Assembly (NCBI GenBank): GCA_903856085.1
Contig: CAIOAT010000016.1
Coordinates: 8,581-72,580, forward strand
Source: Candidatus Omnitrophota bacterium
GTDB taxonomy: Bacteria > Omnitrophota > Omnitrophia > Omnitrophales > Aquincolibacteriaceae
DNA length: 64,000 nucleotides
Direction of reading: 5' to 3'
Part shown: positions 24 to 27,130 of the stretch, piece after piece
Position numbering within the stretch: the stretch's first letter is position 1
Layout: the number at the start of each line of letters is the position of its first letter
Position numbers and translations under genes: made by a program
The notes under the pieces: model-generated
Database searches by the model: none
What the model was told of the DNA's origin: nothing
What the model saw: the letters and a program-made list of their open reading frames with translations, nothing else

Positions 24-965
24 TTACATCCTCAATTTCTGGCGCATTTTATTCAGGACAATCTCGGAAACAAGGTTCAGGACAAACGTAAAAGTAAAAA
101 GCACGGCTCCGACTAGAAAAAGCGCGTAGTAGTGTTCGCTGCCCTGGGCTACGGAACCGAGCTCCGCAGCAATATTGGCGGTCATAGTCCGGACACTTGA
201 AAAAATATTACCTGTTACAAGTGCGGCATTGCCGGTCGCCATAAGCACGATCATCGTTTCCCCGAGCGCTCGCCCGAATCCAAGAATGATCGCCGCCGAG
301 ATCCCCGAAACTGCGGCCGGTACGACCGTTCCCCACACTGTCTGCCACTTCGTGGCACCTAAGGCATACGAGGCGTCCCGCAAGTCTTTGGGTACTGCCC
401 GCATCGCGTCCTCCGCAATGGTAATCATGATCGGCAGAACAGCCAGGGCTACCCCGCAAGCACCGACAAAAGCATTCAAGCGGAACTTGGTATGGAAAGT
501 ATTCTGAATAAAGGTCGCGATAAAAGCCAGCATCACAAATCCGATCACAACCGAGGGGATACCAGCCAAAAGCTCCAGTGTTGGCTTCAGAATTTCACGA
601 ACTTTGGAGGGGGCAAGTTCTGAAAGATAGATTGCACAGCCGAGTCCGAGAACGCCGGCAATGACCGTAGCGGGAAAAGCCACAAGAAGGCTGCCGCAAA
701 TAAGCGGAATGAGGGAATACTTTGGGACTTCGGATATCGATTGCCACATCATCTTGAAAACATAGTGTCCTTCCCAATCGTCGTACACCCATTTCCCAAT
801 CAGGTCAAATGGATTGGCCGTAAAAAAGAACCGCACAGCTTCTTTGAAAAGAAAAACAAAAATCAAGGCCATAATAAGCATCGACGAGATCCCTGCCAAA
901 AGCAAAAGCTTCTGGATCAGCCACTCTGAGAAATTCCCGCTTTTTTTCGTCAGTCGATGTCTCAT
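24..965 (-). CDS. pstC: Phosphate ABC transporter permease PstC
   Basis: 313-aa polytopic permease with ABC-transporter permease signature (EAA-like loop '...AIAEDAMRAVPKDLRDASYALGATKWQ...'); immediately downstream of pstS in the same orientation; next gene (pstA) appears to begin at window edge. Confidence 0.85.
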   Translation of the reverse strand: MRHRLTKKSGNFSEWLIQKLLLLAGISSMLIMALIFVFLFKEAVRFFFTANPFDLIGKWVYDDWEGHYVFKMMWQSISEVPKYSLIPLICGSLLVAFPATVIAGVLGLGCAIYLSELAPSKVREILKPTLELLAGIPSVVIGFVMLAFIATFIQNTFHTKFRLNAFVGACGVALAVLPIMITIAEDAMRAVPKDLRDASYALGATKWQTVWGTVVPAAVSGISAAIILGFGRALGETMIVLMATGNAALVTGNIFSSVRTMTANIAAELGSVAQGSEHYYALFLVGAVLFTFTFVLNLVSEIVLNKMRQKLRM

Positions 966-1048: not shown

Positions 1049-1924
1049 CTACTTCTTCAGTTTCAATGGAACATACCCGATTTCTTCGACGATCTTCTGA
1101 CCTTCCGGACTCATGATCCAGTCCAGATAAGCTTTGATCTCGCCCTTGGGCTTAAAACCGGTGTACATATACAAATAGCGCCAAATAGGATACGTCCCGC
1201 TCCAGGCTGCTTCATAGTCAAGCGTTCCATCAGCCTTAACCGGGTTGATGGCCGGGGACTTATCATCCCTCTTCACGGAAAGGATCTTCACTCCCGGCTG
1301 CTTAATGTAATAAGCTGCGCCCCCGTAACCAATACCATTGGGATCCTTGGAAACCGCATTGGCAATCGCCGAGGTTCCGGGCATGGTCTGACAATCCGCC
1401 GCATAATCTTTGTTCTTGAGAACTTCTTCTTTGAGGAATGTATAGGTCCCGCTTGACGACTCACGGCAATACCGGAGGATGGGTTGATTGGGCCCGCCAA
1501 TTTCATTCCAGTTATTGATATTACCCATATAGATCCCCTGAATCTGTTTCAAGGAAAGTTCCTTGATAGGATTTGAAGCATTTACCACGATGGCCAAACT
1601 ATCCATCGCGACCTTGAATTCTTCAGGATAGTAACCGGCGGCTTTCGCTTTATCCATCTCGCTGGCCTTGATCTTGCGGCTGGCGTTCGCGATATCGGTA
1701 GTCCCATTGATCAGGGCTGCAATTCCGACACCTGAACCACCTCCGGTCACCTGGATCGCGGCTTCAGGGTGCTTCTGCATGTAGACTTCGGCCCACTTCT
1801 GCCCCATGACCACGATCGTGTCGGAACCCTTGACAGTGATGTTCTTCGCGGCGAAGGCTGACGGAATTATGGCCGCCAAAGCCATCACCAAAACACCCCT
1901 TATAACCCAACGCGTTGTTTTCAT
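1049..1924 (-). CDS. pstS: Phosphate-binding periplasmic protein PstS
   Basis: PBP-type protein with signal peptide (MKTTRWVIRGVLVMALAAIIPSAFA), 'GSDT' and 'GGGSGVG' motifs typical of PstS; start moved to ATG at 1924 preceded by GGAGAAG SD. Confidence 0.85.
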   Translation of the reverse strand: MKTTRWVIRGVLVMALAAIIPSAFAAKNITVKGSDTIVVMGQKWAEVYMQKHPEAAIQVTGGGSGVGIAALINGTTDIANASRKIKASEMDKAKAAGYYPEEFKVAMDSLAIVVNASNPIKELSLKQIQGIYMGNINNWNEIGGPNQPILRYCRESSSGTYTFLKEEVLKNKDYAADCQTMPGTSAIANAVSKDPNGIGYGGAAYYIKQPGVKILSVKRDDKSPAINPVKADGTLDYEAAWSGTYPIWRYLYMYTGFKPKGEIKAYLDWIMSPEGQKIVEEIGYVPLKLKK

Positions 1925-1996
1925 TTTAGCTTCTCCTTTTGACGCCTTCAGTTTAAATGAAAGCATCCTGGTTAGATGTAAAATTCCTGTAAACTC

Positions 1997-3583
1997 TTAG
2001 AACTTATACGTCATATCGAGCTGAAACCGGCGAACCGATTGATCCGTTTGCATACCCGTCGTATAAATGGAGTTTCTCTGAGTGATCGGTCGAACGAGGT
2101 AACACGCGCCATTCACGGTCAGATAATCGGTGAGGTTGTATCCCAACTTGATGACACTGCCATCTTTGTCAGCACCACCATAGTTATACCCGCCAAAGTC
2201 GCTATCATTAAAAGCGCCAGGTACAGAGTTTGCACCGATATACTTGTATTGGTAGCTCGTCTGCCAATCCCCCTTTTTCACGAGCTTCCCGAGCGTGAGA
2301 CCTAGCGACCAGGCATACTCGCCACCCTGCATCGTGTAATTTTGGGCCGCTCCAGTCTGAGCACCAATTCCAGATGTGTTGCTCATATTCCGCGCAAATT
2401 CAGCGAATGGTTTTACGGGAACACCGTAAGGATAGAGATTAACCTCCTGATACAAGCTCAGAACATTAAACTTTCCTGCCGCCAACCTAGATCCGTCAAT
2501 CGGATTTCCATTAGCGAAACTCGTAGCAGGAGTGCTTCCATTATAGGCATTCCAATTGGAGTTCTCGGCGTAATGCTGATAATTGTAAACAGAAAGTGCC
2601 GTAAGCGCATCCACAGGCCTTTCCATTCCGGGAACATAGAAAACGGGATTCAACCCAACTTGATAAGCGAACAGGTTGGCGTCTTTTCCCTGGGAAGGTT
2701 GATTTGCCACGCCATTAGCGGTGGCATAGGTAGCTGTATTCCCATTCTCCTGGAGGATGAATTGGCCCAAGGTAGCGTAGGCTTTAAGATCCAGGTTATC
2801 GGTCTTTAAGAGCCGCGCATCGATCTTTTCATAGGCACCTTCCGGTTTCAGGTCCCGGTCCCAGATCATATCGGTAGAACCTTTTTCGAAAGGATTGTTG
2901 AATTTACCGCCAGTAACCTCCAAACCCGAGACTGCCAAATCCCCGACGGGATTGATCTTGGCCCATTCCGGAGTGTAGGTTGCGTAAGCCTTTTCGATCC
3001 AGATGTTTTTGAAGGTGAAATCATTACCAAGGGTTTGATTCGTAGAGATGGGGTCGGTGTTACCGTTGGCCGAAGTCGAACCGCCGCTGGCCATCGAAAA
3101 ACCGACTTTCATTTCCGGATTGAATGTTTTTTCAAATCCATAGCGCAGGCGGATACGAAACCGGTTTCTGTCCGGCTGGTAAGTATTAACGCCCGCAGGA
3201 GCTGTCGTTCCATTCCAGCGATTACCGGTTAGGCCAAACGCCTCATATCTCAAACGAAGATCTCCGCTGAACTTGAGGTCCTTGAGCCACTTGTTGGCAC
3301 CGCCGGTCGAATCGCTCAAGCGCTGATTGAATTCGGCTTCACTCATCGGAGGAGTTGCTTCCACGCCGCTAGGAGCCACAGCGATCTTCCCGCCGTTACC
3401 TGCCTTGAGCGCCTGGATCTCTGATTTCTGCGCCATGACGGTCGACTGCAGATCGTTCATCTGTTTCTGCATGTTCTTGACCATATCCATGAGCTGCGCT
3501 TCATCCGCGAACGCCGCAGACGAAAAAGTCATAAGGCAAACGACTAAAATGCTCGCCAGTTTTGTGAAAGGGTGGTATTTCAT
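1997..3583 (-). CDS. Outer-membrane porin, probably phosphate-selective (OprO/OprP-like), with N-terminal coiled coil
   Basis: Signal peptide (MKYHPFTKLASILVVCLMTFSSAAFA), N-terminal coiled-coil segment, long alternating beta-strand region rich in G/Y/N, C-terminal '...YKF' aromatic terminus typical of beta-barrel OMPs; sits directly upstream of pstSC; start set to ATG 3583 with GGAGGAG SD (ORF track start is further upstream). Confidence 0.6.
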   Translation of the reverse strand: MKYHPFTKLASILVVCLMTFSSAAFADEAQLMDMVKNMQKQMNDLQSTVMAQKSEIQALKAGNGGKIAVAPSGVEATPPMSEAEFNQRLSDSTGGANKWLKDLKFSGDLRLRYEAFGLTGNRWNGTTAPAGVNTYQPDRNRFRIRLRYGFEKTFNPEMKVGFSMASGGSTSANGNTDPISTNQTLGNDFTFKNIWIEKAYATYTPEWAKINPVGDLAVSGLEVTGGKFNNPFEKGSTDMIWDRDLKPEGAYEKIDARLLKTDNLDLKAYATLGQFILQENGNTATYATANGVANQPSQGKDANLFAYQVGLNPVFYVPGMERPVDALTALSVYNYQHYAENSNWNAYNGSTPATSFANGNPIDGSRLAAGKFNVLSLYQEVNLYPYGVPVKPFAEFARNMSNTSGIGAQTGAAQNYTMQGGEYAWSLGLTLGKLVKKGDWQTSYQYKYIGANSVPGAFNDSDFGGYNYGGADKDGSVIKLGYNLTDYLTVNGACYLVRPITQRNSIYTTGMQTDQSVRRFQLDMTYKF

Positions 3584-3699
3584 AAGATTGGATCTCCTCC
3601 GGTTGAATGGGAATGGGGCAGAATTCTTTTCTGTCCGTTTGATTTTCATGCCGGAAGTATAGAAAACCCGTGTCAGGTCTCCATGATGGAAATGTAAAG

Positions 3700-3732
3700 A
3701 AATTGTAAGGAAAAAAGTGACGGCTTTCGGAT
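3700..3732 (-). promoter_or_regulatory. Candidate Pho-box-like direct repeats upstream of porin-pstSC operon
   Basis: TGTAAAG / TGTAAGG direct repeats with 11-bp periodicity (TTACA-type half-sites on the coding strand) ~120 bp upstream of porin start; pattern resembles PhoB/PhoP boxes; unverified. Confidence 0.2.
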
Positions 3733-3918: not shown

Positions 3919-4776
3919 TTAGTAAACCGCCTGCACAAATCTCTGTTTGTTGAGAGGCGGGCGTTTGTAACCTTTATCTTTCTGGCGCTTTGGAATGACG
4001 AGTTTCTTTTGGGTCACATCTCTATAGGGGATCTGAGCCAATAGATGTGTCATGCAATTCAGGCGGGAACGTTTTTTGTCGTTCGAGTCCACCACATGCC
4101 AGGGAGAATCCTTGGTGTCCGTATGTTCAAACATGACATCCTTGGCTTTTGAATATTCCACCCAGCGAGCGCGGGCTTCTAAATCCATCGGGCTGAGTTT
4201 CCAGCGCCGGGCGGGATCCTTGAGCCTTTCCTGAAAGCGCGCTTCCTGCACGGCATCGCTGACCGAAAACCAGTATTTAATGAGAATAGTTCCGGAACGG
4301 ATCAGTTCTTTCTCGAATTGCGGGCAAAAATCCAAAAAATCCCGGTACTCCGCATCCGTGCAAAAGCCCATCACGCGTTCGACGCCCGCACGGTTGTACC
4401 AACTGCGATCAAAAAGCACCACCTCCCCGGCGGCCGGCAAATACGCGGCATACCGCTGGAAATACCACTGTGTTTTTTCCCGCTCCGTAGGAGTTCCCAA
4501 CGCCGCGATCCGGACAATGCGCGGGTTCGTGAGTCCCGTTATCCGTTTGATCACGCCCCCCTTACCGGCCGCATCACGCCCCTCAAAAAGCACCACGACC
4601 TTGAGCCCCTTAAACTTGACCCACTCTTCCAATTTGACCATCTCGGTTTGCAGCCGCTCGATTTCCCGGTCGTAAATCTTGTTTTTAAGTTTCTTGGGCA
4701 GGCCGTCGAGCTTTCCGGATTTTTTCTTCAGGATCTTCCTTATTTCTTCTTTCACATGTTGATCCTTCTTGCCCAT
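3919..4776 (-). CDS. ppk2: Polyphosphate kinase 2 (PPK2 family polyP:NDP/AMP phosphotransferase)
   Basis: Walker A 'FEGRDAAGKGG', Walker B and PPK2 lid motifs; ~285 aa single-domain PPK2. Confidence 0.85.
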   Translation of the reverse strand: MGKKDQHVKEEIRKILKKKSGKLDGLPKKLKNKIYDREIERLQTEMVKLEEWVKFKGLKVVVLFEGRDAAGKGGVIKRITGLTNPRIVRIAALGTPTEREKTQWYFQRYAAYLPAAGEVVLFDRSWYNRAGVERVMGFCTDAEYRDFLDFCPQFEKELIRSGTILIKYWFSVSDAVQEARFQERLKDPARRWKLSPMDLEARARWVEYSKAKDVMFEHTDTKDSPWHVVDSNDKKRSRLNCMTHLLAQIPYRDVTQKKLVIPKRQKDKGYKRPPLNKQRFVQAVY

Positions 4777-4840: not shown

Positions 4841-5398
4841 TCAGATCTTCACTTCGTTGGGGTAAGCGAGTTTCTTAAGCTCTTCTATCATTTGCTCGAC
4901 ATTTTTTGTTTCAGCGCTATCAGGGCCTATTTTTTTCAGACGAATATTCAGCGCCTTGTTGAGAATATCGATGGCGGCCGTGTATTTTTTTTGCATGGCA
5001 TAAGCAACACCAAGGTTAAAATAAATCGCCGCCATTTCCACGCCTTCTTTGTCCAACTTTTTAAGATCGATCAGGACAGCCAGCTTGTAGAGCTGCTCGG
5101 CTTCCGACGCACGCTTCAGGTACAAATAAAGATTTGCCAGATTATTCATGGTATCTGCGGCTTCCAGGCTGTCTTTCCCGTACTCCTCTTTCGCCACCTG
5201 AACGGCTTTTTCTGCGGCTTGAAGCGCTGCCGGCAAGTCCCTCGCTTCATTTGCGGCAACGAGCTGATCGTTCAAAGCTTGTATCTTTGCCGCACCTGCA
5301 CTGTGATCCTTCGCGAGCACAGGCTCCGCCTGCGCAGTAAGACAGATGAGAGCACTCAGAGTAAGCATTGAAATATAGCGGCATTTTTTCATCATCAT
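4841..5398 (-). CDS. TPR-repeat secreted/lipoprotein
   Basis: N-terminal signal peptide (MMMKKCRYISMLTLSALICLTAQA), three TPR-like helical repeats (…NNLANLYLYLKRASEAEQLYKLAV…, …YFNLGVAYAMQKKYTAAIDILNKAL…). Confidence 0.6.
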   Translation of the reverse strand: MMMKKCRYISMLTLSALICLTAQAEPVLAKDHSAGAAKIQALNDQLVAANEARDLPAALQAAEKAVQVAKEEYGKDSLEAADTMNNLANLYLYLKRASEAEQLYKLAVLIDLKKLDKEGVEMAAIYFNLGVAYAMQKKYTAAIDILNKALNIRLKKIGPDSAETKNVEQMIEELKKLAYPNEVKI

Positions 5399-5901
5399 TT
5401 TAAATCTCCGGATTCCTGAAACTATTTCTCTCCTTAAGACGCAGGATTGTAGTCCTTTGGAAAGCGGAAATCAAATCTTCCGAAGCTTTCTGATAGTTTT
5501 TACACATATTTATCATCACCGTCATGGGGTATTTACATAGAAATGCGAGACTTGGGTCAGAATAAAGAATAAAACAAGCTTGCGAAAGGGGATCAACCAT
5601 GATCAGCCAATTAGACTGCCTCGAAGACTTGATGGATTGGAATTCTTGCACCGAAATCAAATCGGCGCCTACCGCACGCGTGGGAAAGAGTTTTTTCCCT
5701 GTTTTTATGATCGAGTCCGCAACGACATCACCGGCCGGCAAAGAAATGGACTCGTGGCTTATCCGGTCCGGGCTTTCTCCCCAAGCAAGCCTTGCCTTCA
5801 GCCGGATCGGGATCTACACGGATTTTTCTTAGCCCTAATCCAAAAAGATCGCGAATCTTGCCTCTTATTTTGAACTTCACGGAACGTTCGGGGATCTGTG
5901 A

Positions 5902-6717
5902 TCAAGAGACGGGAACAAACTGGGCCTGAGCGGCTTCCCAGAGCTGACGGGCCAGATCTTTCCGCTGACCCGCTCTTATCGGCCTGTCGCCAAAAACAAA
6001 ACGCGCCTTGAAGGTCCTCATCCGAAGCAGGTCCTTCAAGTGCGGCATGAATTCCATATCGCCCCACCAGCAAACAGACCGGCTGGCCGGGGTTTCTTCC
6101 CGGGGCGTTCGATAGAAGATCGTAACAAAATGGACAGGATAGAGCCTGTCGGCGGCCGATCTAAAAAGCGCCGCATTAAAAGGAAGGATCCCGCTTCCTG
6201 CGCTGCTGGTTCCTTCCGGAAAAAACAAGACACCTTTCCGTCCCTCGAACGCCTCTTCGATCTCCCGGTTGACGCGGATCGCATCCCGGGCATTGTCCCG
6301 GTCCACAAAGATACAATCGAAAGCTTTGATCACGCTTCCAAGAAAAGGCCATTCCTCGACTTCCCTTTTTGCAATAAAAACAGCGTCAAGCTGGGTCGCT
6401 AGGGCGATGATATCGACATAGCTTAGATGATTGCTAATAATAACATAGGGGGACTCCGGCGGCGTCCCGCGAACAGTGATGCGCATTCCAAGCACGGCAG
6501 CTGAGGCACGGGCCCAGAATCTGAAAACGATCTTCCTCCAGCGCCAGCCGGCCGCAGGAAGAAGGAACCTTCTGAAAAAAATAAGAAGGTAGGTCAATAC
6601 AAGCACCGAAAAAATCAAAAAGATGCGGACCCGGGCTCGGATCGAACCCCGGAGGCTCTCTACGAAACCGGCTATTTCAGTTATGAAAGAAGTCAAAGGT
6701 CTTTTCATCGAGATCAT
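5902..6717 (-). CDS. olsA: Lysophospholipid/lyso-ornithine-lipid O-acyltransferase (PlsC/OlsA-like LPLAT)
   Basis: HX4D acyltransferase motif 'NHLSYVDI', 'FPEGT' motif, N-terminal TM anchor; overlaps the upstream GNAT gene (olsB-like) by tens of bp; exact start uncertain (ATG 6717/6708 or TTG 6795). Confidence 0.6.
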   Translation of the reverse strand: MISMKRPLTSFITEIAGFVESLRGSIRARVRIFLIFSVLVLTYLLIFFRRFLLPAAGWRWRKIVFRFWARASAAVLGMRITVRGTPPESPYVIISNHLSYVDIIALATQLDAVFIAKREVEEWPFLGSVIKAFDCIFVDRDNARDAIRVNREIEEAFEGRKGVLFFPEGTSSAGSGILPFNAALFRSAADRLYPVHFVTIFYRTPREETPASRSVCWWGDMEFMPHLKDLLRMRTFKARFVFGDRPIRAGQRKDLARQLWEAAQAQFVPVS

Positions 6718-7474
6718 CAATGTCGAGAAGTGTAAGAAAATCAATAGTGCCGAACGCGCGGTCCACGGCAGGTTCACTGCAGATCCGCGCCCCAAAATTC
6801 AGATAGGCCTTCAGCAAGCGAGGGATCGTCTTTTTTTTCAAGGGATACGGTGCCTCGAGAGGCTCCCCACATTCAAAATCAGGACAAACGCCAAGAAAAA
6901 TCTCCGGATGCAAATAGCCATGGGTGGATAAATAATCAAACGCATGCCAACCCTCACGGGGGTCCTGTTCCGTCAAAGAGGTGCAGCCGAAGAGGTACCG
7001 CTTCCCTTTCATCTCGAGATATTTCACAAGCCCCTTCCACAAGAGGAAAAGAACTTTGACGTTCCGATGCTCCTTTGCAATGCACGCGCGACCGATCTCG
7101 ATCCCGTTCTTCAAGTATGCGTTCGGGAACCTAGTAAAATCGAATTCCGCGGCAGAATAAAAACCAATATTCGCCTGCGCCATTTCGAAGGTTTGAAGAC
7201 GATAGGTCCCGACGGGCACCCCCGTCCTGTTCTCGCAGATAACAAGATGATCGCAATAGCGGTCAAAACCATCCTCGTCCTTACCGGACAAGTGCGACCG
7301 GAGAAGTCCCTCCTGCAGCTCCAGGTTAAAAACCCGATATCTTAAGCGGAGTACAGCATCCAGATCCGGTGAATCCCCTTTGAGAAAACGAATGTGGAAC
7401 CCTTTGTCCGGAGGAGCAGAGACAAGGTCCGAACGGACCTCCTGGCTTGCGCCTTTTTCCTGAACGGCGCTCAT
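6677..7474 (-). CDS. olsB: GNAT-family N-acyltransferase of the OlsB/hemolysin-like family (ornithine N-acyltransferase candidate)
   Basis: Sequence features of the PF13444-type GNAT ('...LRLRYRVFNLELQEG...', 'YLFGCTSL') and pairing with a PlsC-like gene downstream; start ATG at 7474 overlaps stop of PHP gene (ATGA). Confidence 0.55.
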   Translation of the reverse strand: MSAVQEKGASQEVRSDLVSAPPDKGFHIRFLKGDSPDLDAVLRLRYRVFNLELQEGLLRSHLSGKDEDGFDRYCDHLVICENRTGVPVGTYRLQTFEMAQANIGFYSAAEFDFTRFPNAYLKNGIEIGRACIAKEHRNVKVLFLLWKGLVKYLEMKGKRYLFGCTSLTEQDPREGWHAFDYLSTHGYLHPEIFLGVCPDFECGEPLEAPYPLKKKTIPRLLKAYLNFGARICSEPAVDRAFGTIDFLTLLDIDDLDEKTFDFFHN

Positions 7475-9231
7475 AAGCACCTCACCACAGATGGATTTTC
7501 AAAAAGTTCATTCCGCCGCTTAAAAAGAATCTTTTCTTGAGACTCATCCCCGCGATACTCCCCATCTGCGAGGTTGCAGAGATACTTCAGATATTTTTCA
7601 ACAGCCTCAAAAGTACCGTCTTCGGTATCGGGGAGATCGGCGCGGGAAACTTCCGGAGAAAACGTCACAAGACATTTGACATCCAGCATACGGGCCGCAA
7701 TAAACCCAAGCAATCCGATCGGCCCCGGCGTATCGATCACGATACGATCGGGATTCCATTTCTCGATCACCGAGAGCGCCCCGAGAACCGATGGAATCCT
7801 GAGCGAGAAACAACCGAAAAATCGTCTTCGAAGGAGCCCGATCATCGGCAGGTCGAGCGCCCCGGAACAACCCAGCGGCCTTCGCGGACGGGAACAGACA
7901 GCCACTCTGACAGACTGACCTCTGGCGAGGTTCCGCTTGGAGCGGAATTCTTCGAGATCCCTCAGCGACCTTACGGCATCCGAGAACCAGAGACTCCTTT
8001 CCGGGATTTTCGCCGACCTGGCCGGACATTCTTCATGGAACTCAAGGTCTTCCAACAGCCTCTTGTTATGGTTCAACAAACGGAGTGCAGCAAAGAACGG
8101 CGCACCGAGGAATGTGGTCGCAATAATGCCTTTTTTCAGCCAGCGGGCCTTTCCGGCACGCCCCTGCTTCGGCCCAAGAGCCTGGATCATGTTCCGGACG
8201 ATCTCATCGAGCAATATTGTCAGTTGTTTGTAAACAAGATCGATCCTCTGGACGGAGGAGAGGGAGCTATTCGAGGCATACCCTCGGAAAATACCAGAAA
8301 AGAATTTCCCGAGAACCTTATGAAAATTCCGTGGACTTCGTACAAGAAAAAATGAGAGGACGCGAAGTAATCCACCGTGGGATTTATTCCCCCGAAGCAT
8401 CCCGCCAATTTCGCGGGAGATGAACGCGGGGCTCTTTTTCCCAGCGAGATCACCATAAACGTGCCCCCCGATCAAGATAAAGCTCAAAGCCATGGACTTA
8501 TAATCGTGGTTACGGCCAAACCCGAATGTCTTTTTATCACGAAGAGATTGCAGAAAATCTTGCTTTGTCCTGCCAGAGGCCACCGTGAAGGTATCCCCGA
8601 TAAAAAGACCAGCATGATCATCCGACCCGCCTGTCAGTCCCTTAATCCAGCTGTCTTCCGAGAAAGGTTCGATCCGATGCTTGGCATGCAACCGTTCGAT
8701 ATCTTCGTGGGTCAAATGCTCGATGGCCTCGGTCCATTCCTGGTTATGACGGGTGGCATGAGCACCGTTCACACTTTCAAAAACATCGAAAAGCAAAATA
8801 AGCTTTTCAAGGCCGTCGCGATCAATCTTGCGATTCACGCTGAGCGTTGCGTGAGCAACCGAATAGGCGAGCCTTTCTGCACGGATATAATCCCTGAAAG
8901 CATAAATGTTCGAACGGAGCCCCAGGAGCTTCGCGAACTGTTTTTCTGTAAGATCGAAAACAAGGATGTGAACCTTGCAATGGTTCTCCGGGAAAACAAC
9001 CGAAAACTCACAACTAACAAAGGCTTCGGCGGGATACTTGTGGGCCAGACGGAGCGCTCCCTCAATAGAATTGTGGTCGGTCACCGTAACAAAATCCATT
9101 TTCTTGAATTTTGCAACGCGATAAATATGCTCGAGCTCCGTATAGGATTCACGGACCCCGAGCGCTTTCAACGTCCACTCATCTCCATCCAGAGAATACT
9201 TCGAATGCAAATGCAGATCGGCTCTAGCCAT
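7471..9231 (-). CDS. PHP-domain metal-dependent phosphoesterase with long C-terminal domain of unknown function
   Basis: N-terminus 'MARADLHLHSKYSLDG…VTDHN' is the PHP (polymerase/histidinol-phosphatase) metal-binding signature; start re-assigned to ATG 9231 with AGGAAAGGAA SD; stop overlaps olsB start. Confidence 0.6.
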   Translation of the reverse strand: MARADLHLHSKYSLDGDEWTLKALGVRESYTELEHIYRVAKFKKMDFVTVTDHNSIEGALRLAHKYPAEAFVSCEFSVVFPENHCKVHILVFDLTEKQFAKLLGLRSNIYAFRDYIRAERLAYSVAHATLSVNRKIDRDGLEKLILLFDVFESVNGAHATRHNQEWTEAIEHLTHEDIERLHAKHRIEPFSEDSWIKGLTGGSDDHAGLFIGDTFTVASGRTKQDFLQSLRDKKTFGFGRNHDYKSMALSFILIGGHVYGDLAGKKSPAFISREIGGMLRGNKSHGGLLRVLSFFLVRSPRNFHKVLGKFFSGIFRGYASNSSLSSVQRIDLVYKQLTILLDEIVRNMIQALGPKQGRAGKARWLKKGIIATTFLGAPFFAALRLLNHNKRLLEDLEFHEECPARSAKIPERSLWFSDAVRSLRDLEEFRSKRNLARGQSVRVAVCSRPRRPLGCSGALDLPMIGLLRRRFFGCFSLRIPSVLGALSVIEKWNPDRIVIDTPGPIGLLGFIAARMLDVKCLVTFSPEVSRADLPDTEDGTFEAVEKYLKYLCNLADGEYRGDESQEKILFKRRNELFENPSVVRCL

Positions 9232-9385
9232 AAATGATTCCTTTCCTGGACTCAAGATCTACCCAGAATCATTATCGACGATCAACATGATGGGAGTGTT
9301 TGGCGGAGGAAAATTCCGTGTAAAATCATTTTGAAACGACGTAATCAGCTCTGGGGAAACAGGTTAAAGAAACCCTGCCGAACGC

Positions 9386-11455
9386 TCACTGCAGATTTTT
9401 ATTGGCCTTGGGACGCTGAGGCTTGAGATCAAGGGGAAGCTGTTTGTCATGCAAAGCTTCGTTCTCAAGCGCTTTTTGGCAAAGGTACTCTTGAACACGG
9501 AATTTCTTTTCGCCCGCAGGATCCTTTTTTTGATAGGTCCCATCGGGAGAAAGCCCCCAAGCCTTCTGGTTATCCTTGAAATAATGATGGAGGAGCTGAA
9601 TGAGTTCTTTTTTGTTTTTTCTATCCTCCACAGGAAACATGAGCTCAAGACGCTTATCAAAATTCCTCGGCATCCAATCTGCGCTGGAAAGATAAACTTC
9701 GTCGTCCCCTGCGTTCGAAAAATAAAAAATCCGACTGTGTTCCAGGAACATATCGACAATACTCACCACCTCGATATTTTCACTCAGGCCTTTGACTCCT
9801 GGCCGGAGGCAACAGATCCCGCGAACATTCAGTTTTATCTGAACCCCTTTTTGCGAAGCGCGATAGAGAGCATCAATGATCTCCTTATCCACCAAAGAGT
9901 TCATCTTCGCAATTATGAGGCCGGAGCGTTCGGGGGAACTCTGCGCAGACTCCCGAAAGATCAACCGTAAAAGCTTCCGGCGTAACCCATAGGGTGCCAT
10001 TTCGAGCTTGGAAAAATGACCGGGGCTTGAGAACCCCGTCATGAGATTGAAGAAGGAACTGACATCCGCGGCAAACTCATCATGACTCGTAAAAAGATTA
10101 AGGTCCGAATAGATCTGAGCGGTTTTTTCATTGTAATTCCCGGTTCCAAGATGCAGATACCGCTTGATCCCTGCGGCTTCACGACGAACAACCAAGCAAA
10201 CTTTGGAATGTGTTTTCAGACCAACCACCCCATAAAGGATCGTAGCCCCCGCTCTCTCCAAACGTTTGGCCTCTTCGATATTCCGCTCTTCATCAAAGCG
10301 CGCCTTCAGCTCAACTAAGACGGTAACCTGTTTTCCCTTTTCCACTGCTTTTTCAAGAGCATTAATGACCGGCGAATGATTCCCAGTCCTGTAAAGCGTC
10401 TGTTTGATAGCTAAAACATCCGGATCTTCTGCGGCAGTCGAAACAAACCGAAGAAAAGCACTGAAAGAATCGTAGGGATAATGCACCAACAGATCTTTTT
10501 CCCTGAGCAATCCCCAAAGGTCACCGGCTTCCGTCATTTCCAGAACGGGTCGCGGTATCCATGCGAGCCGCTTGAACCTTTCGAACCCGGGCTGGAATGC
10601 TAGCTGAGAAATGCTTTTAAGATCAAGCCATCCCTCACTTTTAAAGATCTCATGTCCCTCAATGCCCATTTTCTGTTTCAAATGGTCGATCATGTCATCG
10701 GACGCATCGATCTCAAGACGCACGACCCGGCTTTCCTTTCTAGACCGCAGAGCCTCACTCATAAGTTTTGCTAGGTCTTCGTCCTTTTCTTCATCGATCG
10801 TAAATTCCGCGCAACGCGTCACCCTAAGGGACCCCTGACGCCCGATCATAAACCCGAGAAAAAGCTCCTGCGCAAAAAGACCGATCACGTCTTCGATCAG
10901 AATGAACGCATGGCTAGATTCCGAGGGAAGCATGATCATGCGCGGACAATTTTTAGGGATCTCAACCAAGGCGTAACGTGCGGCTGCGAGATTGGTGGAT
11001 TCTGTGAGTTCAAAAATACGGTAAAGACTCAGGTTTGCGAGGCTCGGGAAAGGCTGTTCTTCATGAACCGCGAGCGGTGTGAGGAGCGGCAAGAACTCCG
11101 TCAAAAAAAGGTTTTTAATGAACAGGAACTGTTTCTCGTTCAGGGCTTGCGGAAGGACTCGCACAATACCGTCCCCTTCCATTTCATGGACAAGAAGTTC
11201 CTTGAAATAAAGCTGCTGCTTATGGATCAAGGAAGACGCCTGCTGATAGATCTCCAGCAGAAGTGGGTCTGTTTCAGGGACGCTGGCAACGCGAACCATA
11301 AAAAATTCGTCGAAATTGGAGCTGACGATCCCGACAAACTTCAAGCGCTCCAGAACAGGATTCGAGATATCCATTGCCTCTGCCAGAACGCGGGCATTGA
11401 ACCGAATCCATGATAATTCCCGATCAAAATATTTTTCTTGAGGGATATTTTCCAT
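9386..11455 (-). CDS. ppk: Polyphosphate kinase 1
   Basis: N-terminal 'YFDRELSWIRFNARVLAEA' PPK1 signature, ~690 aa four-domain length, PLD-like C-terminal regions. Confidence 0.9.
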   Translation of the reverse strand: MENIPQEKYFDRELSWIRFNARVLAEAMDISNPVLERLKFVGIVSSNFDEFFMVRVASVPETDPLLLEIYQQASSLIHKQQLYFKELLVHEMEGDGIVRVLPQALNEKQFLFIKNLFLTEFLPLLTPLAVHEEQPFPSLANLSLYRIFELTESTNLAAARYALVEIPKNCPRMIMLPSESSHAFILIEDVIGLFAQELFLGFMIGRQGSLRVTRCAEFTIDEEKDEDLAKLMSEALRSRKESRVVRLEIDASDDMIDHLKQKMGIEGHEIFKSEGWLDLKSISQLAFQPGFERFKRLAWIPRPVLEMTEAGDLWGLLREKDLLVHYPYDSFSAFLRFVSTAAEDPDVLAIKQTLYRTGNHSPVINALEKAVEKGKQVTVLVELKARFDEERNIEEAKRLERAGATILYGVVGLKTHSKVCLVVRREAAGIKRYLHLGTGNYNEKTAQIYSDLNLFTSHDEFAADVSSFFNLMTGFSSPGHFSKLEMAPYGLRRKLLRLIFRESAQSSPERSGLIIAKMNSLVDKEIIDALYRASQKGVQIKLNVRGICCLRPGVKGLSENIEVVSIVDMFLEHSRIFYFSNAGDDEVYLSSADWMPRNFDKRLELMFPVEDRKNKKELIQLLHHYFKDNQKAWGLSPDGTYQKKDPAGEKKFRVQEYLCQKALENEALHDKQLPLDLKPQRPKANKNLQ

Positions 11456-11467
11456 AGTTTTGAAACT

Positions 11468-13030
11468 CTAAAGCGACGGGCCCGCGCCTTGCTTCAGATC
11501 GAGGGGTGCTCCAAAAACATCGGCGAACATGTCCCCTTTCCGTCGCAGGCTTTCCCGTTCAAGCGAAATATCCCCGATCTCTTTCGGCACCCAGATCGCA
11601 TAAGTGTCTTCCGAACGTTCCAGAGTAAACGACCGGATCTTCTGCTGGTGGCCGGTGTCCAAAGCGTCTGCAATGCGCAGGATGGAAGCAAGTTTTGAGA
11701 CGATTGCCCGGTCCGATTTCGCAAGAGACATGTAAGGTACGTGCGTTTCGCGCGGCGGCACACGGCGATGATACCGGACAACATTAGCGACAATATTCTT
11801 GTCGGTCCTCCTCAGCCCGAAGATCTCGGCGGCATCCACTAAATAATACGAATGCTTGTGGTGTCCCGAAGGAGAAACGTAGGTTCCAATATCATGTAAG
11901 ATACCGGAAACCTCGAGCAAAAGACGCTCGCGGGACCCCATGCCATGATCTCCCGCAAGCAGGTCATAAAGTTTCAATGAGAGTGAGGCCACGCAAACCG
12001 CATGCCCCTTGTCGTACATATATTTTGCCCCAAGGTGGTGGGCGGAATTAAGGACCTGCTTCGAGACGTCCGTTCTTCGGTAACCCGAAAAAAGCTGGGC
12101 CATTTCGAGCAAAAGACCGTCCCGAATACTTAATTTTGGGATAATGACCTCCTCCGCCTTGGTTTCATTTAAAAAATTCAAATAAAAAAGAAGCGCGGGG
12201 TAAAGGGACTCCGCATGCCCATAATCGAGAGAGTATTGCGCGGCAATCTCTTCGGGCGTCATTTTCCCCACCCGCCCCATAAAACTCACAAATTCTTTCT
12301 TTTCAAGAATGGTGAAACGGTCGAGAGTCTCCGGAAGAAGCTGCTGCGATACGAATCGCATATCTCCACCCAGAGCAACGAACGTATCGATCTGCTCCAT
12401 ACGAACTTCACGCGCCACGTTCTGTGCGATATCCCGGATACTCTTCTTCAGAACACGCTGTATGAGTCCCGCATCTTCTTTCCCGGCTACGGCCTGCTCG
12501 GGAAGCCTTACTGATCCTATCGGCAGGGTCCGCGTAACGCTCACCCGACCTTGATCCATGATGATCATTTCCGTACTGCCAGAGCCTACTTCGACGATCA
12601 GGCAATTCTTTTTTTCGAGATCGATCCTCCCCTCCAGCGCATGCTCGACCGCGATCAATTCGAGACGGTTTTCTTCCGGGCCCTCCAAGATCTCCACTTC
12701 GATGCCAGCGCGCACATAGATTTGATCGATGAAATTATCCCGATTCTGGGCCTCCCGGACAGCGCTCGTGGCGATCGCTTGGACTTTTTTGATTCCATAC
12801 GTATCGATCACAGACTTGAAGTCTCGGAGAATGTTCACACCCTGGCGCATGGAAGCACTGCTCAACCTGCCCGTTTTAAAAACATCTTTGCCGAAACGAA
12901 CCGGCTTTTGAAGCTGCTCCAAATAACGAATCTCGTTTTTGGCTCCAACCTCCGCAATCACCATGCGGATTGCAATGGTTCCGATGTCAATAACGGCGGC
13001 GATATGTTTTTGAATTTCTTGTTCAGGCAT
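11468..13030 (-). CDS. ppx: Exopolyphosphatase/guanosine pentaphosphate phosphohydrolase (Ppx/GppA) with C-terminal HD domain
   Basis: ASKHA-fold N-terminus 'AAVIDIGTIAIRMVIAEV', C-terminal HD motif 'ILHDIG'; immediately downstream of ppk1 as in canonical ppk-ppx operons. Confidence 0.85.
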   Translation of the reverse strand: MPEQEIQKHIAAVIDIGTIAIRMVIAEVGAKNEIRYLEQLQKPVRFGKDVFKTGRLSSASMRQGVNILRDFKSVIDTYGIKKVQAIATSAVREAQNRDNFIDQIYVRAGIEVEILEGPEENRLELIAVEHALEGRIDLEKKNCLIVEVGSGSTEMIIMDQGRVSVTRTLPIGSVRLPEQAVAGKEDAGLIQRVLKKSIRDIAQNVAREVRMEQIDTFVALGGDMRFVSQQLLPETLDRFTILEKKEFVSFMGRVGKMTPEEIAAQYSLDYGHAESLYPALLFYLNFLNETKAEEVIIPKLSIRDGLLLEMAQLFSGYRRTDVSKQVLNSAHHLGAKYMYDKGHAVCVASLSLKLYDLLAGDHGMGSRERLLLEVSGILHDIGTYVSPSGHHKHSYYLVDAAEIFGLRRTDKNIVANVVRYHRRVPPRETHVPYMSLAKSDRAIVSKLASILRIADALDTGHQQKIRSFTLERSEDTYAIWVPKEIGDISLERESLRRKGDMFADVFGAPLDLKQGAGPSL

Positions 13031-13038
13031 GCTGTTCC

Positions 13039-14031
13039 CTACTTTTTGGCCGCTTTAAAAACTTCATGGGCCATTTTGGCGGCTCCTAAAATAACCGCAT
13101 TATCCTTCAGTTTGGACGGGACGATTTTCACCACTTTGGCGAGGGGCTTAAGCGCGTAAGCTTCCATCTCACGTCTGACCTCAGGAAGAATGATCTTTCC
13201 CATCGCCTCCATCATTCCTCCTCCCAAGAGGATCAATTCCGGATTCAAAATGTTCACCACATTCGCTAGCGCAACCCCGAGCCACCGGGAACGGCTCCGG
13301 ATCAGCTCCTCTAACGCGATATCCCCCGCTTTGATAGCGCGGGACAAAGCACCGCTGCGGATTTTTTTTACGTTATAACCGATCTCTTCGAGAAGATGCG
13401 GGCACTTCTGCCGCAGCAAGAGGAACCCCGCCTCCGATGCAATAGCATTCCTGCCGACCAAAGCTCCGACTTTTTGGCGCGACGTTTCAAAATCAGAAAA
13501 AGAAGGAAGTGACAGAAATGTCTGGCCGATCTCACCAGCTCCTCCAGAAGCGCCACGGTAAAGATGTCCGTTGATGATGAGCGCCCCGCCGATACCCGTT
13601 CCTAGGAAAACCCCCACGACTTCCCGATAACCCCGCGCTGCGCCGAATTGCTGTTCTCCGAAAAGCCCCGCATTGGCATCGTTTTCAATAAAGACCGGTG
13701 TTTTCAGCTTCGCTTTCAGTTTTTCAGCAAGTGAATAATTCTTAAAAAAAGATACGTTGGAGGAGACTTTGACGATCCCTTTATAGATATCAATGATTCC
13801 AGGACAACCCACACCGATGGTTACAAGATCACTCAGGTCCGACCCGGTTTCTTCCAGAACTTCCTCGATCCCGTCAATGAGCTTGTTGAAAAAGAACCTC
13901 TCGCCGCGATTACCGTCCATCTCAAGTTTGACGGTCTTTTTTAAACTAAATTTCCTGTCAAAAAGACCTATCAGAATCTTGGTCCCGCCCAGATCGATGC
14001 CAAGGATGAACTTCTTTTTCTTGCCCGCCAT
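13039..14031 (-). CDS. ROK-family sugar kinase (glucokinase; possible polyphosphate-glucokinase)
   Basis: 'ILGIDLGGTKI' ASKHA phosphate-1 motif, ROK family Cys/His-containing middle region; start re-set to MAGKKKK (ATG ~14031, GGAGAG SD). PolyP specificity only inferred from ppk/ppx neighbourhood. Confidence 0.7.
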   Translation of the reverse strand: MAGKKKKFILGIDLGGTKILIGLFDRKFSLKKTVKLEMDGNRGERFFFNKLIDGIEEVLEETGSDLSDLVTIGVGCPGIIDIYKGIVKVSSNVSFFKNYSLAEKLKAKLKTPVFIENDANAGLFGEQQFGAARGYREVVGVFLGTGIGGALIINGHLYRGASGGAGEIGQTFLSLPSFSDFETSRQKVGALVGRNAIASEAGFLLLRQKCPHLLEEIGYNVKKIRSGALSRAIKAGDIALEELIRSRSRWLGVALANVVNILNPELILLGGGMMEAMGKIILPEVRREMEAYALKPLAKVVKIVPSKLKDNAVILGAAKMAHEVFKAAKK

Positions 14032-14279
14032 AGACTCTCCCCTTTCAAAATTGATTTCCATTATAATGGCTCAGGGAAGTTTTTATGTAAAGCATTTGTA
14101 AAGTCTTGGTGGCTCTATCCATTCAGACCACCTAAAAAGCCCTTCCAGAAATTCCGTAGAGAAATCCACAGGCCCCTATCTTCACACAAAACACAGGGTA
14201 TTCCTCGCGATCTTTTAACGCAAACAAGCCATCACATAAACCTCTGTGCGAATGAACACGTTTTTCACAGGAACTGTTT

Positions 14280-17200
14280 TTATGCCGCTACTTTAACAGC
14301 CTTTGCATTTCTCCAGGAAGCAGCAAGGAACTCTGTGACAAGCATCAAGGCATCTTTCATGCCCCAAAGATCCCGTTTTCTTCCTAGCTCAAAAAGTTGC
14401 CGACTTGTGACAAGATACCAGAGAAGAGAAAAAAGAACCTCCGGGTCAGAGCTCTTCAACTCCTTATCGTAATAAACAAGATTCCCAACGCAACTCTTCA
14501 CCTTTTGGACTTCGCGGCGATCGATTCCGACATAAGCATAATCCAAGCGTTGATATTGAGGTCCGGTGACTAAGGGACGCAGGAATTTCAAAATGGAAGC
14601 ACTAATGCTATCAGATATCTCTACTAGCTGAAAATGTCCGGTAGGAAGCTCCATTTTCTTTATCTTTTGTTCGATTGCCTCTTTCCCGGGAAATCGACTC
14701 CTCTCGAACAGGATAATGACACGGAACGGCAGCCGCGAAAGCAGCAAAAGATGCTCATCGCGAATTCCGATCCTCGCGTCCAGGAAAAGGGTGTTCAAGG
14801 CATTGGCCCGCTGCGGAAGAGCGCGGAACATTCCCATTCCTTTTTGGAAGGCTAAAAAATCGTCCCCTGATAGCGCTAAAAGCTCCTTCAGATCCGGTCC
14901 TGTGCTTTCTGAAAGAAAACTCGCGTCACCCAAAAGAGATTTTAAGCGCGGTAAAAGTTTTACATCCTCCGGTCCTAGGATCCATTCCGTGATCTTGATG
15001 GCAACCAGAAGACGGACTTTCTCCGAAACAACCGGCGTCACGTCTTCTTGCAAGGAAATCTCACGCGTAACCTCTTTGGGATTGAGTTCTAACGCTGGGG
15101 GTTTTTCGGAAGTTCTGTCTTCTCTCAATTCGGAACGCAGCACCCCACCAGGGCCCACAGCAGCCAACGCGGTTGCAATCGCCGAAAAGTGCGTCGTTAG
15201 AATCTTGTAAGTACGCGGCGTAAAGACACCTCGTTTTTCACGCAACATCGTAGAAACATCCTCGGGGGAGAGGGCCACGATCTCAACGGCATCATCTCCC
15301 GGTCTAAATTCTTTCCAATTGAACTCTCCATTGAGCGAAAAATGAAACAACTTTACATCCTCTTTTCTTGTGGTGGGAACTTGCCTTCGCCCCTCATGAT
15401 GAACTTCATAGGAAAGAGGAGGGAGCTCCCGAACTGGTAATGAGGTTAAGGCCGCGGGAAGAGGGCGGCCATCACGGAGTTCTTCAAGGAACCCCCTCTG
15501 GATTGCGGCTTCCGGACTTTCTCCGGGCTCCAGATGCTCAAAAACGGGAAGATCCAATAGACCCGGATTACTGGAAGTTAAATTACTGCGCCGCTGAAAA
15601 ACAACTTTTCCATCCTTGGTCACAAATGCGGCAACCTTTAAGGCCGCCAGACCTCTTGCATGCCCCTGTTTTCTTGGCAAGTGTACGATTTGATCGCCTC
15701 GCGTATCACGAAACATAAAAATCTGCCGATCCGCGAGCAATGAACCTTCCCCCTCCAATCGCTCGACGGCTGTACGGTTCGCCAGCTCCGGAAAAGATAC
15801 CTCGAGGCGCTTCATCCGCTCCAAAATCCCAGCCCGATTGCTCCCAGATATAAAAAAATGATCGGAAGGCGCCGGAACAAAAGCCTCCACTTCAGGAGGC
15901 TTCTGCGCAGTCGCACGAAAGGTCTCCCACAGTTTTTTCCCCATCGTGCTATAAATCTTCGCATATGGATTGGCGGCATCTTGTCCATCCGAAAACGTTT
16001 TTTGATTATGAGCGAGCCTCTGAAGATTAGGCGACACCGAAGTATTCCCTCGAAGCTGAAGATCGAACTCAGCAACCACTCTCGCAAAATCCTCTACGAG
16101 ATCCACCACAAAAGCTCCATATTTTGAGATCAAGCTTTCTGTTTTTTTACGAAATACGTCTATCAATCCTTCCATCTGTTGACGTTCCTCCTCCGTCCTT
16201 GAAACAAGAGCCATGGGCCCTTTGGGAACTGCAAATTGAGGCGTGATCGCATTATCCAATGTCAGACCGGTCCCGAACAAATGCCCATACTGACCTAAGG
16301 CACCTTTCAATTCTTCTGGGCGACGAACCACATGCTCCACATCATGCCTCGGAGAACCGTTACGCCCCAACAACACGGGATGCCGATCTGTTTCAACTTC
16401 TTCCAGAGAAGCAAGCCGTGCGTCAATAACGATCTGACTTCCCTGGTTGTTATAGCTGATCACATTCGAGCTCAGGTCGCCTCCAGGGAAAATGATCTCT
16501 CCATGCTTCACGCCTTGCTCCCTGAAGTCGCCTGCCATCCGCAAAGCTTCGGCAAGATTCATCTTAAAGACCGCCATAGCAACCGCCAAAGGAATACCTG
16601 GCTGCGGGAACCAATAGATCTGTAATTTTTTACCCAACGACTCCGCCAGATCGCGAGCGGCAAAAAATTGTCCGGCATTCCCCGGGAAAAGGCCGTCGGA
16701 TTCCGCTACTTTGAAACGGAAATGTTTCAGAACATGATCCTGCGCTACCATTGTTTCAAAAAAATTCCGATTCTCTCCGTTTTTAGGCGGGAGCAAAATG
16801 ATCACCTCGACGTCCTCCCTCAAATTTTCATCCAAAAGCGCCCGGCTCATCTTTGCCATCATAAGATTTTCTCCGGCGACATCGTCCATCTGGGAAAGGG
16901 CAACTTCCCTCCTGGGTTCTGAGGCCGGTCGTGACATTTCATATTGTTTGTTTCTCATACGTTTCGCGGACGCCCGTAAGGATTGGATCTCACGTTTGAA
17001 AGTCCCGTAACCATTTCCACTAAGATTCCTCAACATCGGCCCCACATGCCTCCAAACTGAGAAAAGGGTCCACAAAACACCAAAGATTGTCGGAACTGTA
17101 ATCAACAACTGGTGCAAACCAAATATAAGGTTCAGGATGGGTACAATAAAAAGAATCGCCACTCCGGCCACCGCCAATGCCCGGCCAAGCCATCGTCCAT

Positions 17201-25985: not shown

Positions 25986-26119
25986 TTTTTGCCCTTTTCC
26001 AATGGTGGAAGACAACTCTTTAAGGTTTTATAAAAGTTTTTCCTTCTGATCTCACGGAAAGCTTAACTTCGTTGTGAAAACTCTGCATCACATCCCGGTA
26101 AAGATAATGTAAAAACAAT

Positions 26120-27129: not shown

Positions 27130-27130
27130 G

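Follow-up and report, generated by a model that had tools for sequence, protein, structure and literature searches.

Why should the gene for a metal-dependent phosphoesterase share its stop codon with the start of an ornithine-lipid-type acyltransferase pair? The question is raised by a three-gene operon in a 64-kb stretch (64,000 nucleotides; hereafter the window) of contig CAIOAT010000016.1 from a Candidatus Omnitrophota bacterium (assembly GCA_903856085.1). Its genes, all on the minus strand, encode a protein with a polymerase and histidinol phosphatase (PHP) domain, an OlsB-like N-acyltransferase and an OlsA-like O-acyltransferase. Our analysis indicates that this is very probably a phosphate-starvation (Pho)-regulated aminolipid operon. 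Its first protein belongs to a widespread family in which a PHP domain is fused to a GT4-type glycosyltransferase (GT); we refer to it as PHP-GT4N, since only the N-terminal half of the glycosyltransferase is present. On the complete reading, a PhoB-controlled membrane-lipid remodelling operon whose PHP protein cleaves phospholipid head groups, we are evenly balanced.

The PHP-GT4N protein is a truncated member of the PHP-GT4 fusion family and not a free-standing PHP enzyme recruited to olsBA. An AlphaFold2 model of the 586-aa protein (predicted local distance difference test score, pLDDT, 81.4; predicted template modelling score, pTM, 0.79) resolved it into a PHP barrel (residues 1–240), an all-helical domain (244–394) and a single Rossmann domain (413–555). 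Its homologues (E-values down to 1e-120) are proteins of approximately 785–875 aa that combine PHP, Glyco_transf_4 and Glycos_transf_1 domains; the window protein matches them over residues 1 to ~560, ending at a domain boundary, and the long relatives run ~230 aa further with PF00534. Across the PHP domain, the helical domain and the GT4 N-terminal half, homology within the family reaches E-values of 1e-105 to 1e-123 at 35–41% identity over 85–100% of the query, and the family comprises 356 clusters at 50% identity (E ≤ 1e-30), with members in 460 GTDB species. What the window protein lacks is the C-terminal nucleotide-sugar-binding half (Glycos_transf_1, with its EX7E motif): it ends after the N-terminal Rossmann domain, and no GT4 C-terminal half was found anywhere in the 64-kb window. 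Thus the ‘~350-aa uncharacterised C-terminal domain’ of the preliminary description has to be replaced by a helical linker and the N-terminal half of a GT4 enzyme, as judged by homology, alignment, the AlphaFold2 model and structure comparison. The possibility raised there of a PolX-type protein with a nucleic-acid-binding C-terminus was not borne out by the fold comparison. The helical domain gave no informative match to a solved structure; its most hydrophobic helix, GIIATTFLGAPFFAALRLL (aa 368–386), has a borderline Kyte–Doolittle (KD) hydropathy over 19 residues (KD19 1.66) and is a possible interfacial membrane anchor.

Short forms of 586–588 aa recur at 80%, 48% and 42% identity to the window protein. 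Among the 88 PHP columns that are at least 90% conserved in the long forms, 78 are kept by the window protein. The GT4 N-half motifs D-x2-NGV and HTDF, present in 96–100% of long forms, are found in only 0–10% of the Omnitrophota short forms, and the window protein reads S..RDL and SPEV at these positions. Using relatives at a synonymous divergence (dS) of ~1, we obtained ratios of nonsynonymous to synonymous substitution (dN/dS) of 0.06–0.075 for the PHP domain, 0.08–0.10 for the helical domain and 0.155–0.17 for the GT4 N-half. All three domains are under purifying selection, which is strongest on the PHP domain. Taken together, the stable length, the retained PHP columns, the lost GT motifs, the low dN/dS and the missing C-terminal half indicate a maintained enzyme that does not carry out glycosyl transfer. 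Short forms are scattered over at least three parts of a neighbour-joining tree built from 80 family members: the clade from Omnitrophota, a clade of Moduliflexus type and a number of singletons. At least three independent origins imply that the PHP, helical and GT4 N-terminal parts work as a unit on their own.

A few family members depart from this pattern. A 564-aa short form (locus L058, 10001–11695) has a GT4 C-half match 110 nt downstream; it may be no genuine truncation but the result of a gene split, a frameshift or a fault in the assembly. Ten relatives of atypical length were checked: six carried GT4-type domains only, four had no Pfam match at the threshold used, and no other fusion of the PHP clade, such as to BtaA or PlsC, was seen among them. 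Pfam GT4-conflict matches had suggested a conflict system; PADLOC speaks against this reading, giving no defence-system match for the three proteins of the operon or for a long-form relative.

The PHP domain itself appears to be catalytically intact. Structure comparison recovered the distorted (beta/alpha)7 barrel of the PHP superfamily, and the motifs DLHLHS, TDHN, E75, H88, H127 and DDH204–206 are all present. Across 54 family members, D5-L-H7-L-H9, D52-H53, E75, H88, H127 and D204-D205-H206 are invariant or at least 90% conserved; their assignment to a metal site follows the motif pattern and not a solved complex. The intact motifs and the fold thus uphold the original view that the first gene encodes a PHP-fold metal phosphoesterase, a different fold from that of PlcP, the phosphoesterase of alphaproteobacterial lipid remodelling. 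The proposed profile searches succeeded for the two acyltransferases (PF13444, 94.5 bits against a cut-off of 22.4; PF01553, 80.2 against 23) and failed for PF02811 (PHP), which scored 23.0 bits, below its gathering cut-off of 26.4. By its sequence, the domain is best described as a divergent PHP subfamily. Neither the PHP protein nor a 54-sequence profile found an informative sequence match to any PDB chain, and the domains were placed by fold comparison only, with RNase AM, EndoQ, PsfC, TM0559 and BAD_1165 as the closest solved PHP structures.

The coupling of the three genes proved to be as tight as first described. The PHP stop and the olsB start overlap as ATGA, preceded at 6 nt by GGTGAGG, and an identical junction occurs in the Omnitrophota loci L008, L009 and L010; in the relatives at 48% identity (L011, L001) a spacer takes its place, which is 57 nt in the gene calls of the P0010 contig. 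The olsA gene overlaps the end of olsB by 32 nt, and an overlap of equal length is found in the P0010 contig, whose PHP protein is 48% identical to that of the window. The conserved olsA start is the ATG at 6708 rather than those at 6717 or 6795: L008, L010 and L011 share the start region M-K/I-K/R-P, and an in-frame stop in L011 excludes an earlier start. The nearest loci come from Candidatus Omnitrophota metagenome-assembled genomes with 80–82% protein identity, with another at 49%. The order ppk1–PHP–olsB–olsA is present in every examined Omnitrophota relative whose contig reaches that far (L008–L011 and the P0010 contig; that of L009 ends before olsA) and is kept down to 48% protein identity. 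Such recurrence argues against a chance juxtaposition.

The initial assignment of the two acyltransferases as OlsB-like and OlsA-like is supported. The best NCBIfam matches of the pair are two OlsB and two OlsA equivalog models, aligned over nearly their full length and ahead of OlsF and PlsC. The olsB-like protein, a PF13444 (Acetyltransf_5) member, matches the OlsB models with E-values of 4.5e-35 and 1.7e-34; in the better of these (NF052554), residues 24–263 align to model positions 6–253 of 256. A grouping with non-OlsB GNAT proteins, which would have told against the initial assignment, was not seen among the best matches. The olsA-like protein carries an NHLSYVD (HX4D) motif and an N-terminal transmembrane helix (KD 2.58), and matches the PlsC structure 5kym with an E-value of 1.7e-12. 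From these matches, the product of the pair is predicted to be a phosphorus-free aminolipid, the amino acid being most likely ornithine.

The suggested link to phosphate limitation is strengthened by the surroundings of the operon. Positions 24–28903 of the window form a contiguous 29-kb Pho-regulon island, in which the same-strand order is giant open reading frame (ORF), ROK, ppx, ppk1, PHP–olsB–olsA, TPR, PPK2, porin, pstS, pstC; a phoBR pair lies 17 kb from the operon, divergent from the giant ORF. The upstream order ROK–ppx–ppk1 recurs in L009, L011 and the P0010 contig, and the downstream order (TPR, PPK2, porin, PstS, PstC) in L008, L010 and the P0010 contig. Pho-box-like repeats run across the island. 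We defined the candidate Pho box by pattern only, as TTACA-N5-TTTACA with the 11-bp period that is typical of PhoB/PhoP boxes. Five copies with at most one mismatch occur in 64 kb against 0.45 expected (11-fold), and no shuffle reached five. All five are intergenic and on the gene strand, before pstS, the porin gene, ROK–ppx–ppk1 and (twice) the giant ORF, and perfect or near-perfect copies are also present in L009, L010 and L011.

The PHP gene may have a candidate PhoB-dependent promoter of its own. In the 155-nt spacer between ppk1 and the PHP gene, a Pho-box-like array forms two overlapping matches to TTACA-N5-TTTACA, each with two mismatches. When the spacers of six Omnitrophota loci were aligned, two blocks outside the Shine-Dalgarno sequence were invariant, TTACA..GA.TTT.C and CGATA(A/C)T; the latter is a −10-like sequence that we regard as a putative promoter element. 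A consensus scan found no terminator in the ppk1–PHP spacer or, on the gene strand, in the olsA–TPR spacer, and the matches on the minus strand of the operon were at chance level; since no terminator-like site separates ppk1 from the PHP gene, read-through transcription from ppk1 is also possible. The coordinates of these features are collected in Table 1.

Table 1. Features of the operon, its regulatory sequences and the surrounding island (window coordinates).
Feature	Position	Strand	Details
PHP-GT4N gene	ATG 9231 to TGA 7471–7473	minus	586 aa; Shine-Dalgarno AGGAAAGGA
PHP phosphoesterase domain	8512..9231	minus	aa 1–240 of 586
All-helical middle domain	8017..8511	minus	aa 241–405; AlphaFold2 secondary structure
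N-terminal Rossmann half of GT4 (GT-B) glycosyltransferase	7471..8016	minus	aa 406–586 and stop codon
olsB-like amino-acid N-acyltransferase	7474..6677 (stop TGA 6677–6679)	minus	265 aa; PF13444
olsA-like lyso-aminolipid O-acyltransferase	6708..5902	minus	268 aa; PF01553
Pho-box-like array, three 11-bp units TCAAAatgat / TTTACAcggaa / TTTTCCtccgc	9308..9334	minus	−77 to −103 from PHP ATG
−10-like element CGATAAT	9271..9277	minus	~40 nt upstream of PHP start; invariant block
Perfect Pho-box-like repeat TTACAAATGCTTTACA	14086..14101	minus	upstream of ROK–ppx–ppk1
Perfect Pho-box-like repeat	3693–3708	minus	before porin
Perfect Pho-box-like repeat	1977–1992	minus	before pstS
Two Pho-box-like repeats	26097–26112, 26320–26335	minus	divergent promoter region phoBR/giant ORF
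ROK-family kinase	14061..13039	minus	Pfam; directly upstream of ppx
Exopolyphosphatase Ppx/GppA	13030..11468	minus	Pfam
Polyphosphate kinase 1 (ppk1)	11455..9386	minus	Pfam
Secreted TPR protein	5398..4841	minus	Pfam
PPK2	4776..3919	minus	Pfam
Porin_5 porin	about 3583..1997	minus	Pfam
PstS	1966..1049	minus	Pfam
PstC	965..24	minus	Pfam
PhoB-type response regulator	26440–27129	plus	TIGR02154, 265 bits (cut-off 296)
PhoR/PnpS-type histidine kinase	27065–28903	plus	NF046044, 413 bits (cut-off 400)
Giant ORF	14280–26015	minus	3911 aa; only Pfam match NUDIX, aa 3461–3597

Several features of the island stand apart from the operon. The ROK protein may be a polyphosphate glucokinase, and both types of polyphosphate kinase, PPK1 and PPK2, are encoded within the one cluster. 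Locus L002 also has a giant ORF, of 2582 aa, which adjoins the gene for a short PHP protein of 42% identity. The 503-nt gap between olsA and the TPR gene (5399–5901) contains only a doubtful 113-aa ORF with a TTG start, together with a sigma-70-like promoter match (5474–5446, minus strand) ~50 nt before the TPR start. An Rfam search of window positions 1–30000 found no RNA family.

To see the family in its wider genomic setting, we searched 85 non-redundant related loci, 16 kb long on average, for neighbouring genes, using reference proteins as tblastn queries. Phosphate genes were frequent: 12 loci had a pstS, pstC or phoU neighbour and 12 had ppk1, ppx, PPK2 or CHAD, so that 23 of the 85 carried one class or the other, against ~1 expected for random placement in a 4-Mb genome. 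Lipid genes included olsB (8 loci), phosphatidylserine decarboxylase (7 loci) and a betaine-lipid pair resembling BtaA (DUF3419) and BtaB (2 loci), and MJ1255-family glycosyltransferases and radical-SAM enzymes each adjoined 19 loci. The olsB loci comprise the Omnitrophota short forms, with co-directional genes, three Deferribacterota long forms, which are divergently adjacent, and one Lentisphaerae locus. The Deferribacterota arrangement is an independent association of the PHP-GT4 family with olsBA.

The survey also brought up recurring arrangements elsewhere in the family. In the three Deferribacterota loci (L076, L082 from Denitrovibrio and L086 from Deferribacterales), olsB–olsA homologues with 33–36% identity to those of the window are divergent from a long-form PHP-GT4 gene, which is followed by a radical-SAM gene. 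Short PHP-GT4N genes (640–644 aa) in L003 (10117–14225) and L007 (10005–14278) are convergent with genes for a radical-SAM enzyme, an MJ1255-type GT, a methyltransferase and a DUF3419 protein; the latter pair resembles BtaB and BtaA, and would add a third type of phosphorus-free lipid to those found with the family. The Desulfobacterota long forms (L004, L006, L026, L031, L033 and others) share a recurring cluster of an MJ1255/VC2487-family GT, a radical-SAM protein of the SPASM/twitch type, a DksA-like protein, an 824-aa protein without a family match and phosphatidylserine decarboxylase. The long form of D. toluolica lies near pstB–phoU and phosphonate transport genes.

These results can be accommodated in the following model. 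At low phosphate, PhoB would turn on the operon alongside the neighbouring pst, porin and polyphosphate genes. OlsB would join a 3-hydroxy fatty acid to an amino acid (ornithine being the likeliest), and OlsA would add a second acyl chain, giving a phosphorus-free acyloxyacyl aminolipid. The PHP-GT4N protein would be a derivative of an Agt-type glycolipid synthase that is unable to glycosylate but in which the intact PHP site, the helical domain and the GT's lipid-acceptor half are retained. The helical domain and the GT4 acceptor half would hold the protein on the cytoplasmic side of the membrane, where it would cleave the phosphate head group from glycerophospholipids, in the manner of a phospholipase C, or from phosphatidate; the freed phosphorus would be recycled to the cell, with OlsBA providing a substitute lipid. 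In full-length family members, diacylglycerol would pass from the PHP domain straight to the glycosyltransferase fused to it, in parallel to the separate PlcP and Agt of Alphaproteobacteria. We infer the role of the PHP domain as a PlcP-like head-group hydrolase from the logic of fusion and neighbourhood.

A number of observations weigh against this model. Of the closest solved PHP structures, some are uncharacterised and the rest have nucleic acids, nucleotides or small molecules as substrates; the literature searched yielded no lipid-hydrolysing enzyme of the PHP family, and nothing relevant that links PHP domains with glycosyltransferases, Agt, glycolipids or phospholipase activity. A hydropathy scan found no clear transmembrane helix in the PHP-GT4N protein. 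Polyphosphate genes adjoin family members (12 loci) about as often as lipid genes do, and the short-form relative L002 sits beside CHAD–ROK–ppx–ppk1 without ols genes. Because ornithine-lipid synthesis itself needs neither a phosphoesterase nor diacylglycerol, co-regulation alone may account for the coupling of the PHP gene to olsB. The definition of the Pho box is one of pattern only, and before the PHP gene it occurs in a degenerate copy, with two mismatches per unit. Both acyltransferases miss the NCBIfam equivalog cut-offs, OlsB with 121.6 bits against 350 and 119.6 against 320, and OlsA with 141.5 and 137.7 against 300. Finally, the tie to Dde_3613, a glycolipid-synthesis protein of Desulfovibrio (Oleidesulfovibrio) alaskensis considered below, is an automatic annotation string in a supplement and not a sequence alignment.

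Much of this would suit a different role for the PHP protein, that of a scavenger of soluble substrates: nucleotides, adenosine 3′,5′-bisphosphate (pAp), oligoribonucleotides (as for RNase AM/TrpH), sugar phosphates or polyphosphate ends. In that case olsBA would merely belong to the same regulon, and what is left of the GT4 would serve as a scaffold or for oligomerisation. The nearest solved PHPs, which include RNase AM (active on nucleotides and RNA) and uncharacterised phosphoesterases, are in keeping with such a role, as are the polyphosphate-gene neighbours, the setting of L002 and the missing transmembrane helix. It leaves unexplained, however, why nearly every family member is a fusion with a lipid-type GT4, and why purifying selection still acts on the GT4 N-half, the lipid-acceptor, membrane-binding half in PimA and similar enzymes, now that the sugar-binding half is gone. 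The conserved ATGA coupling to olsB, and the olsBA, BtaAB-like, phosphatidylserine decarboxylase and LGT/lipase-pair neighbours of the family, also speak for lipids. So do the PHP-then-GT order, which mirrors plcP–agt (PMC4796936), and the requirement for Dde_3613, annotated with the same two domains, in glycolipid synthesis (PMC5193443). Overall, we consider a soluble substrate unlikely. It is far less probable again that the short protein is still a glycosyltransferase whose C-terminal half is supplied in trans, so that the operon would make a glycolipid as well as an aminolipid. The apparent split gene in L058 and the complete MJ1255-family GT near Moduliflexus-type short forms could be taken that way, but the window holds no GT4 C-half, the next gene is olsB with its ATGA overlap, D-x2-NGV and HTDF have been replaced in the Omnitrophota short clade, and the short-form length is stable. 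The missing catalytic half and GT motifs might even suggest a functionless remnant, cut when olsBA inserted and now decaying. We give this the least credence of all: a dN/dS of 0.06–0.17 in all three domains effectively refutes a pseudogene, length and gene order are conserved at 48% identity, the PHP metal-ligand residues are intact, a conserved promoter- or operator-like block lies upstream, and comparable truncations arose independently elsewhere in the family.

The acyltransferase pair could also make something other than ornithine lipid: another acyloxyacyl aminolipid (a glycine, lysine, glutamine or serine–glycine lipid) or a secreted N-acyl amino acid. With scores at about a third to half of the equivalog cut-offs, the pair leaves room for this, and a 2026 review reports that OlsB/OlsF homologues can use other amino acids, with Omnitrophota absent from the orders listed with OlsB (PMC12971839). 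For Omnitrophota and ornithine lipid, the literature searched contained one unrelated review only. Set against this are the near-full-length matches to the two OlsB and two OlsA models, which come out ahead of OlsF and PlsC, and the overlapping N-acyltransferase/O-acyltransferase pair, which is the classic OlsBA arrangement; we regard a different product as rather unlikely.

Returning to the lipid-remodelling model, part of it is already well known, namely Pho-regulated OlsBA and PlcP–Agt remodelling. What is new is a broad Agt-type family with a PHP domain, catalytically intact by its motifs, in the position of PlcP; that this PHP-GT4 module has repeatedly shed its glycosyltransferase half; and that in Omnitrophota one truncated form, with a Pho box that can be defined, has become coupled in translation to olsBA. 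The replacement of phospholipids by phosphorus-free lipids is a major microbial answer to phosphate scarcity, and glycolipids and aminolipids serve as environmental markers of phosphate stress. To our knowledge, the removal of the phosphate head group is a step known only for PlcP-type enzymes. We therefore put forward, tentatively and while leaning slightly against it, a more general proposal: that the PHP domain represents a new class of lipid phosphoesterase, working within the cell as a phospholipase C or a phosphatidate phosphatase, and the first lipid-active PHP, which feeds diacylglycerol to the fused Agt-type synthase as a counterpart of PlcP–Agt, and which in one Omnitrophota clade has been uncoupled from it and hard-wired to aminolipid synthesis. 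Its scope would extend to hundreds of mostly anaerobic lineages of Desulfobacterota, Lentisphaerota, Omnitrophota, Spirochaetota, Planctomycetota, Deferribacterota and others. If true, the step that releases phosphate would become known for a wide range of anaerobes, the PHP superfamily would gain a new type of reaction, and the ‘Agt’ described for D. alaskensis would turn out to be two enzymes fused into one. The truncated form in Omnitrophota would then be a natural separation-of-function allele, a PHP domain without glycosyl transfer, with which the hypothesis can be put to a direct test in E. coli. For Omnitrophota, a phylum with almost no experimental physiology, the model predicts aminolipids and a defined Pho box.

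Collectively, the operon invites comparison with four kinds of known system. In the OlsBA pairs of Sinorhizobium meliloti, Pseudomonas aeruginosa and Burkholderia, as in the window, an N-acyltransferase (PF13444) comes first and a PlsC-type O-acyltransferase (PF01553, HX4D) second; in S. meliloti and P. aeruginosa, low phosphate induces olsB or olsBA. The window pair differs in scoring far below the equivalog cut-offs and in being coupled to a PHP-GT4N gene, which is undescribed for olsBA. Unlike the stand-alone PHP proteins TrpH/RNase AM, TM0559 and BAD_1165, the first protein has a helical and GT4 context and a different genomic context, with no detectable sequence similarity to any PDB chain and a Pfam score below the cut-off.

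The closest relative with a known phenotype appears to be Dde_3613 (‘agt’, glycosyltransferase group I) of the sulfate reducer D. alaskensis G20, which, being annotated with the same two domains, seems to share the PHP-GT fusion of the window family. No other ‘Agt’ of a sulfate reducer is known to have been characterised genetically. It is needed for the synthesis of monoglycosyldiacylglycerol (MGDG) and glycuronic acid diacylglycerol (GADG) and has a fitness role only under phosphate limitation; the mutant has neither glycolipid and keeps more phospholipid (PMC5193443). The same study treats the protein purely as a glycosyltransferase, leaves the PHP domain undiscussed and names no phospholipase (PMC5193443). 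Dde_3613 is presumably full length, whereas the window protein has no sugar-nucleotide half and is therefore unlikely to fill the same role in glycolipid synthesis. D. alaskensis G20 uses OlsF where the window has OlsBA.

The general plan would be analogous (although not homologous in its phosphoesterase) to that of the PlcP–Agt module, represented by PlcP of S. meliloti (SMc00171) and Agt of Agrobacterium tumefaciens and SAR11, which is Pho-regulated, replaces phospholipids with phosphorus-free lipids and often occurs together with OlsBA or BtaAB. In marine Alphaproteobacteria, plcP is most often directly upstream of agt and is preceded by a Pho box (PMC4796936). In both cases a phosphoesterase comes before a GT4-type glycolipid synthase, the PHP-then-GT4 order of the fusion matching that of plcP–agt. 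PlcP is a calcineurin-like metallophosphoesterase, whereas the window phosphoesterase has the TIM-barrel-like PHP fold, so that the window protein is at most a functional analogue of PlcP and not a member of its family. Unlike PlcP and Agt, the PHP-GT4 family would combine both activities in one polypeptide; in the window, the GT half has been cut away and olsBA follow in its place.

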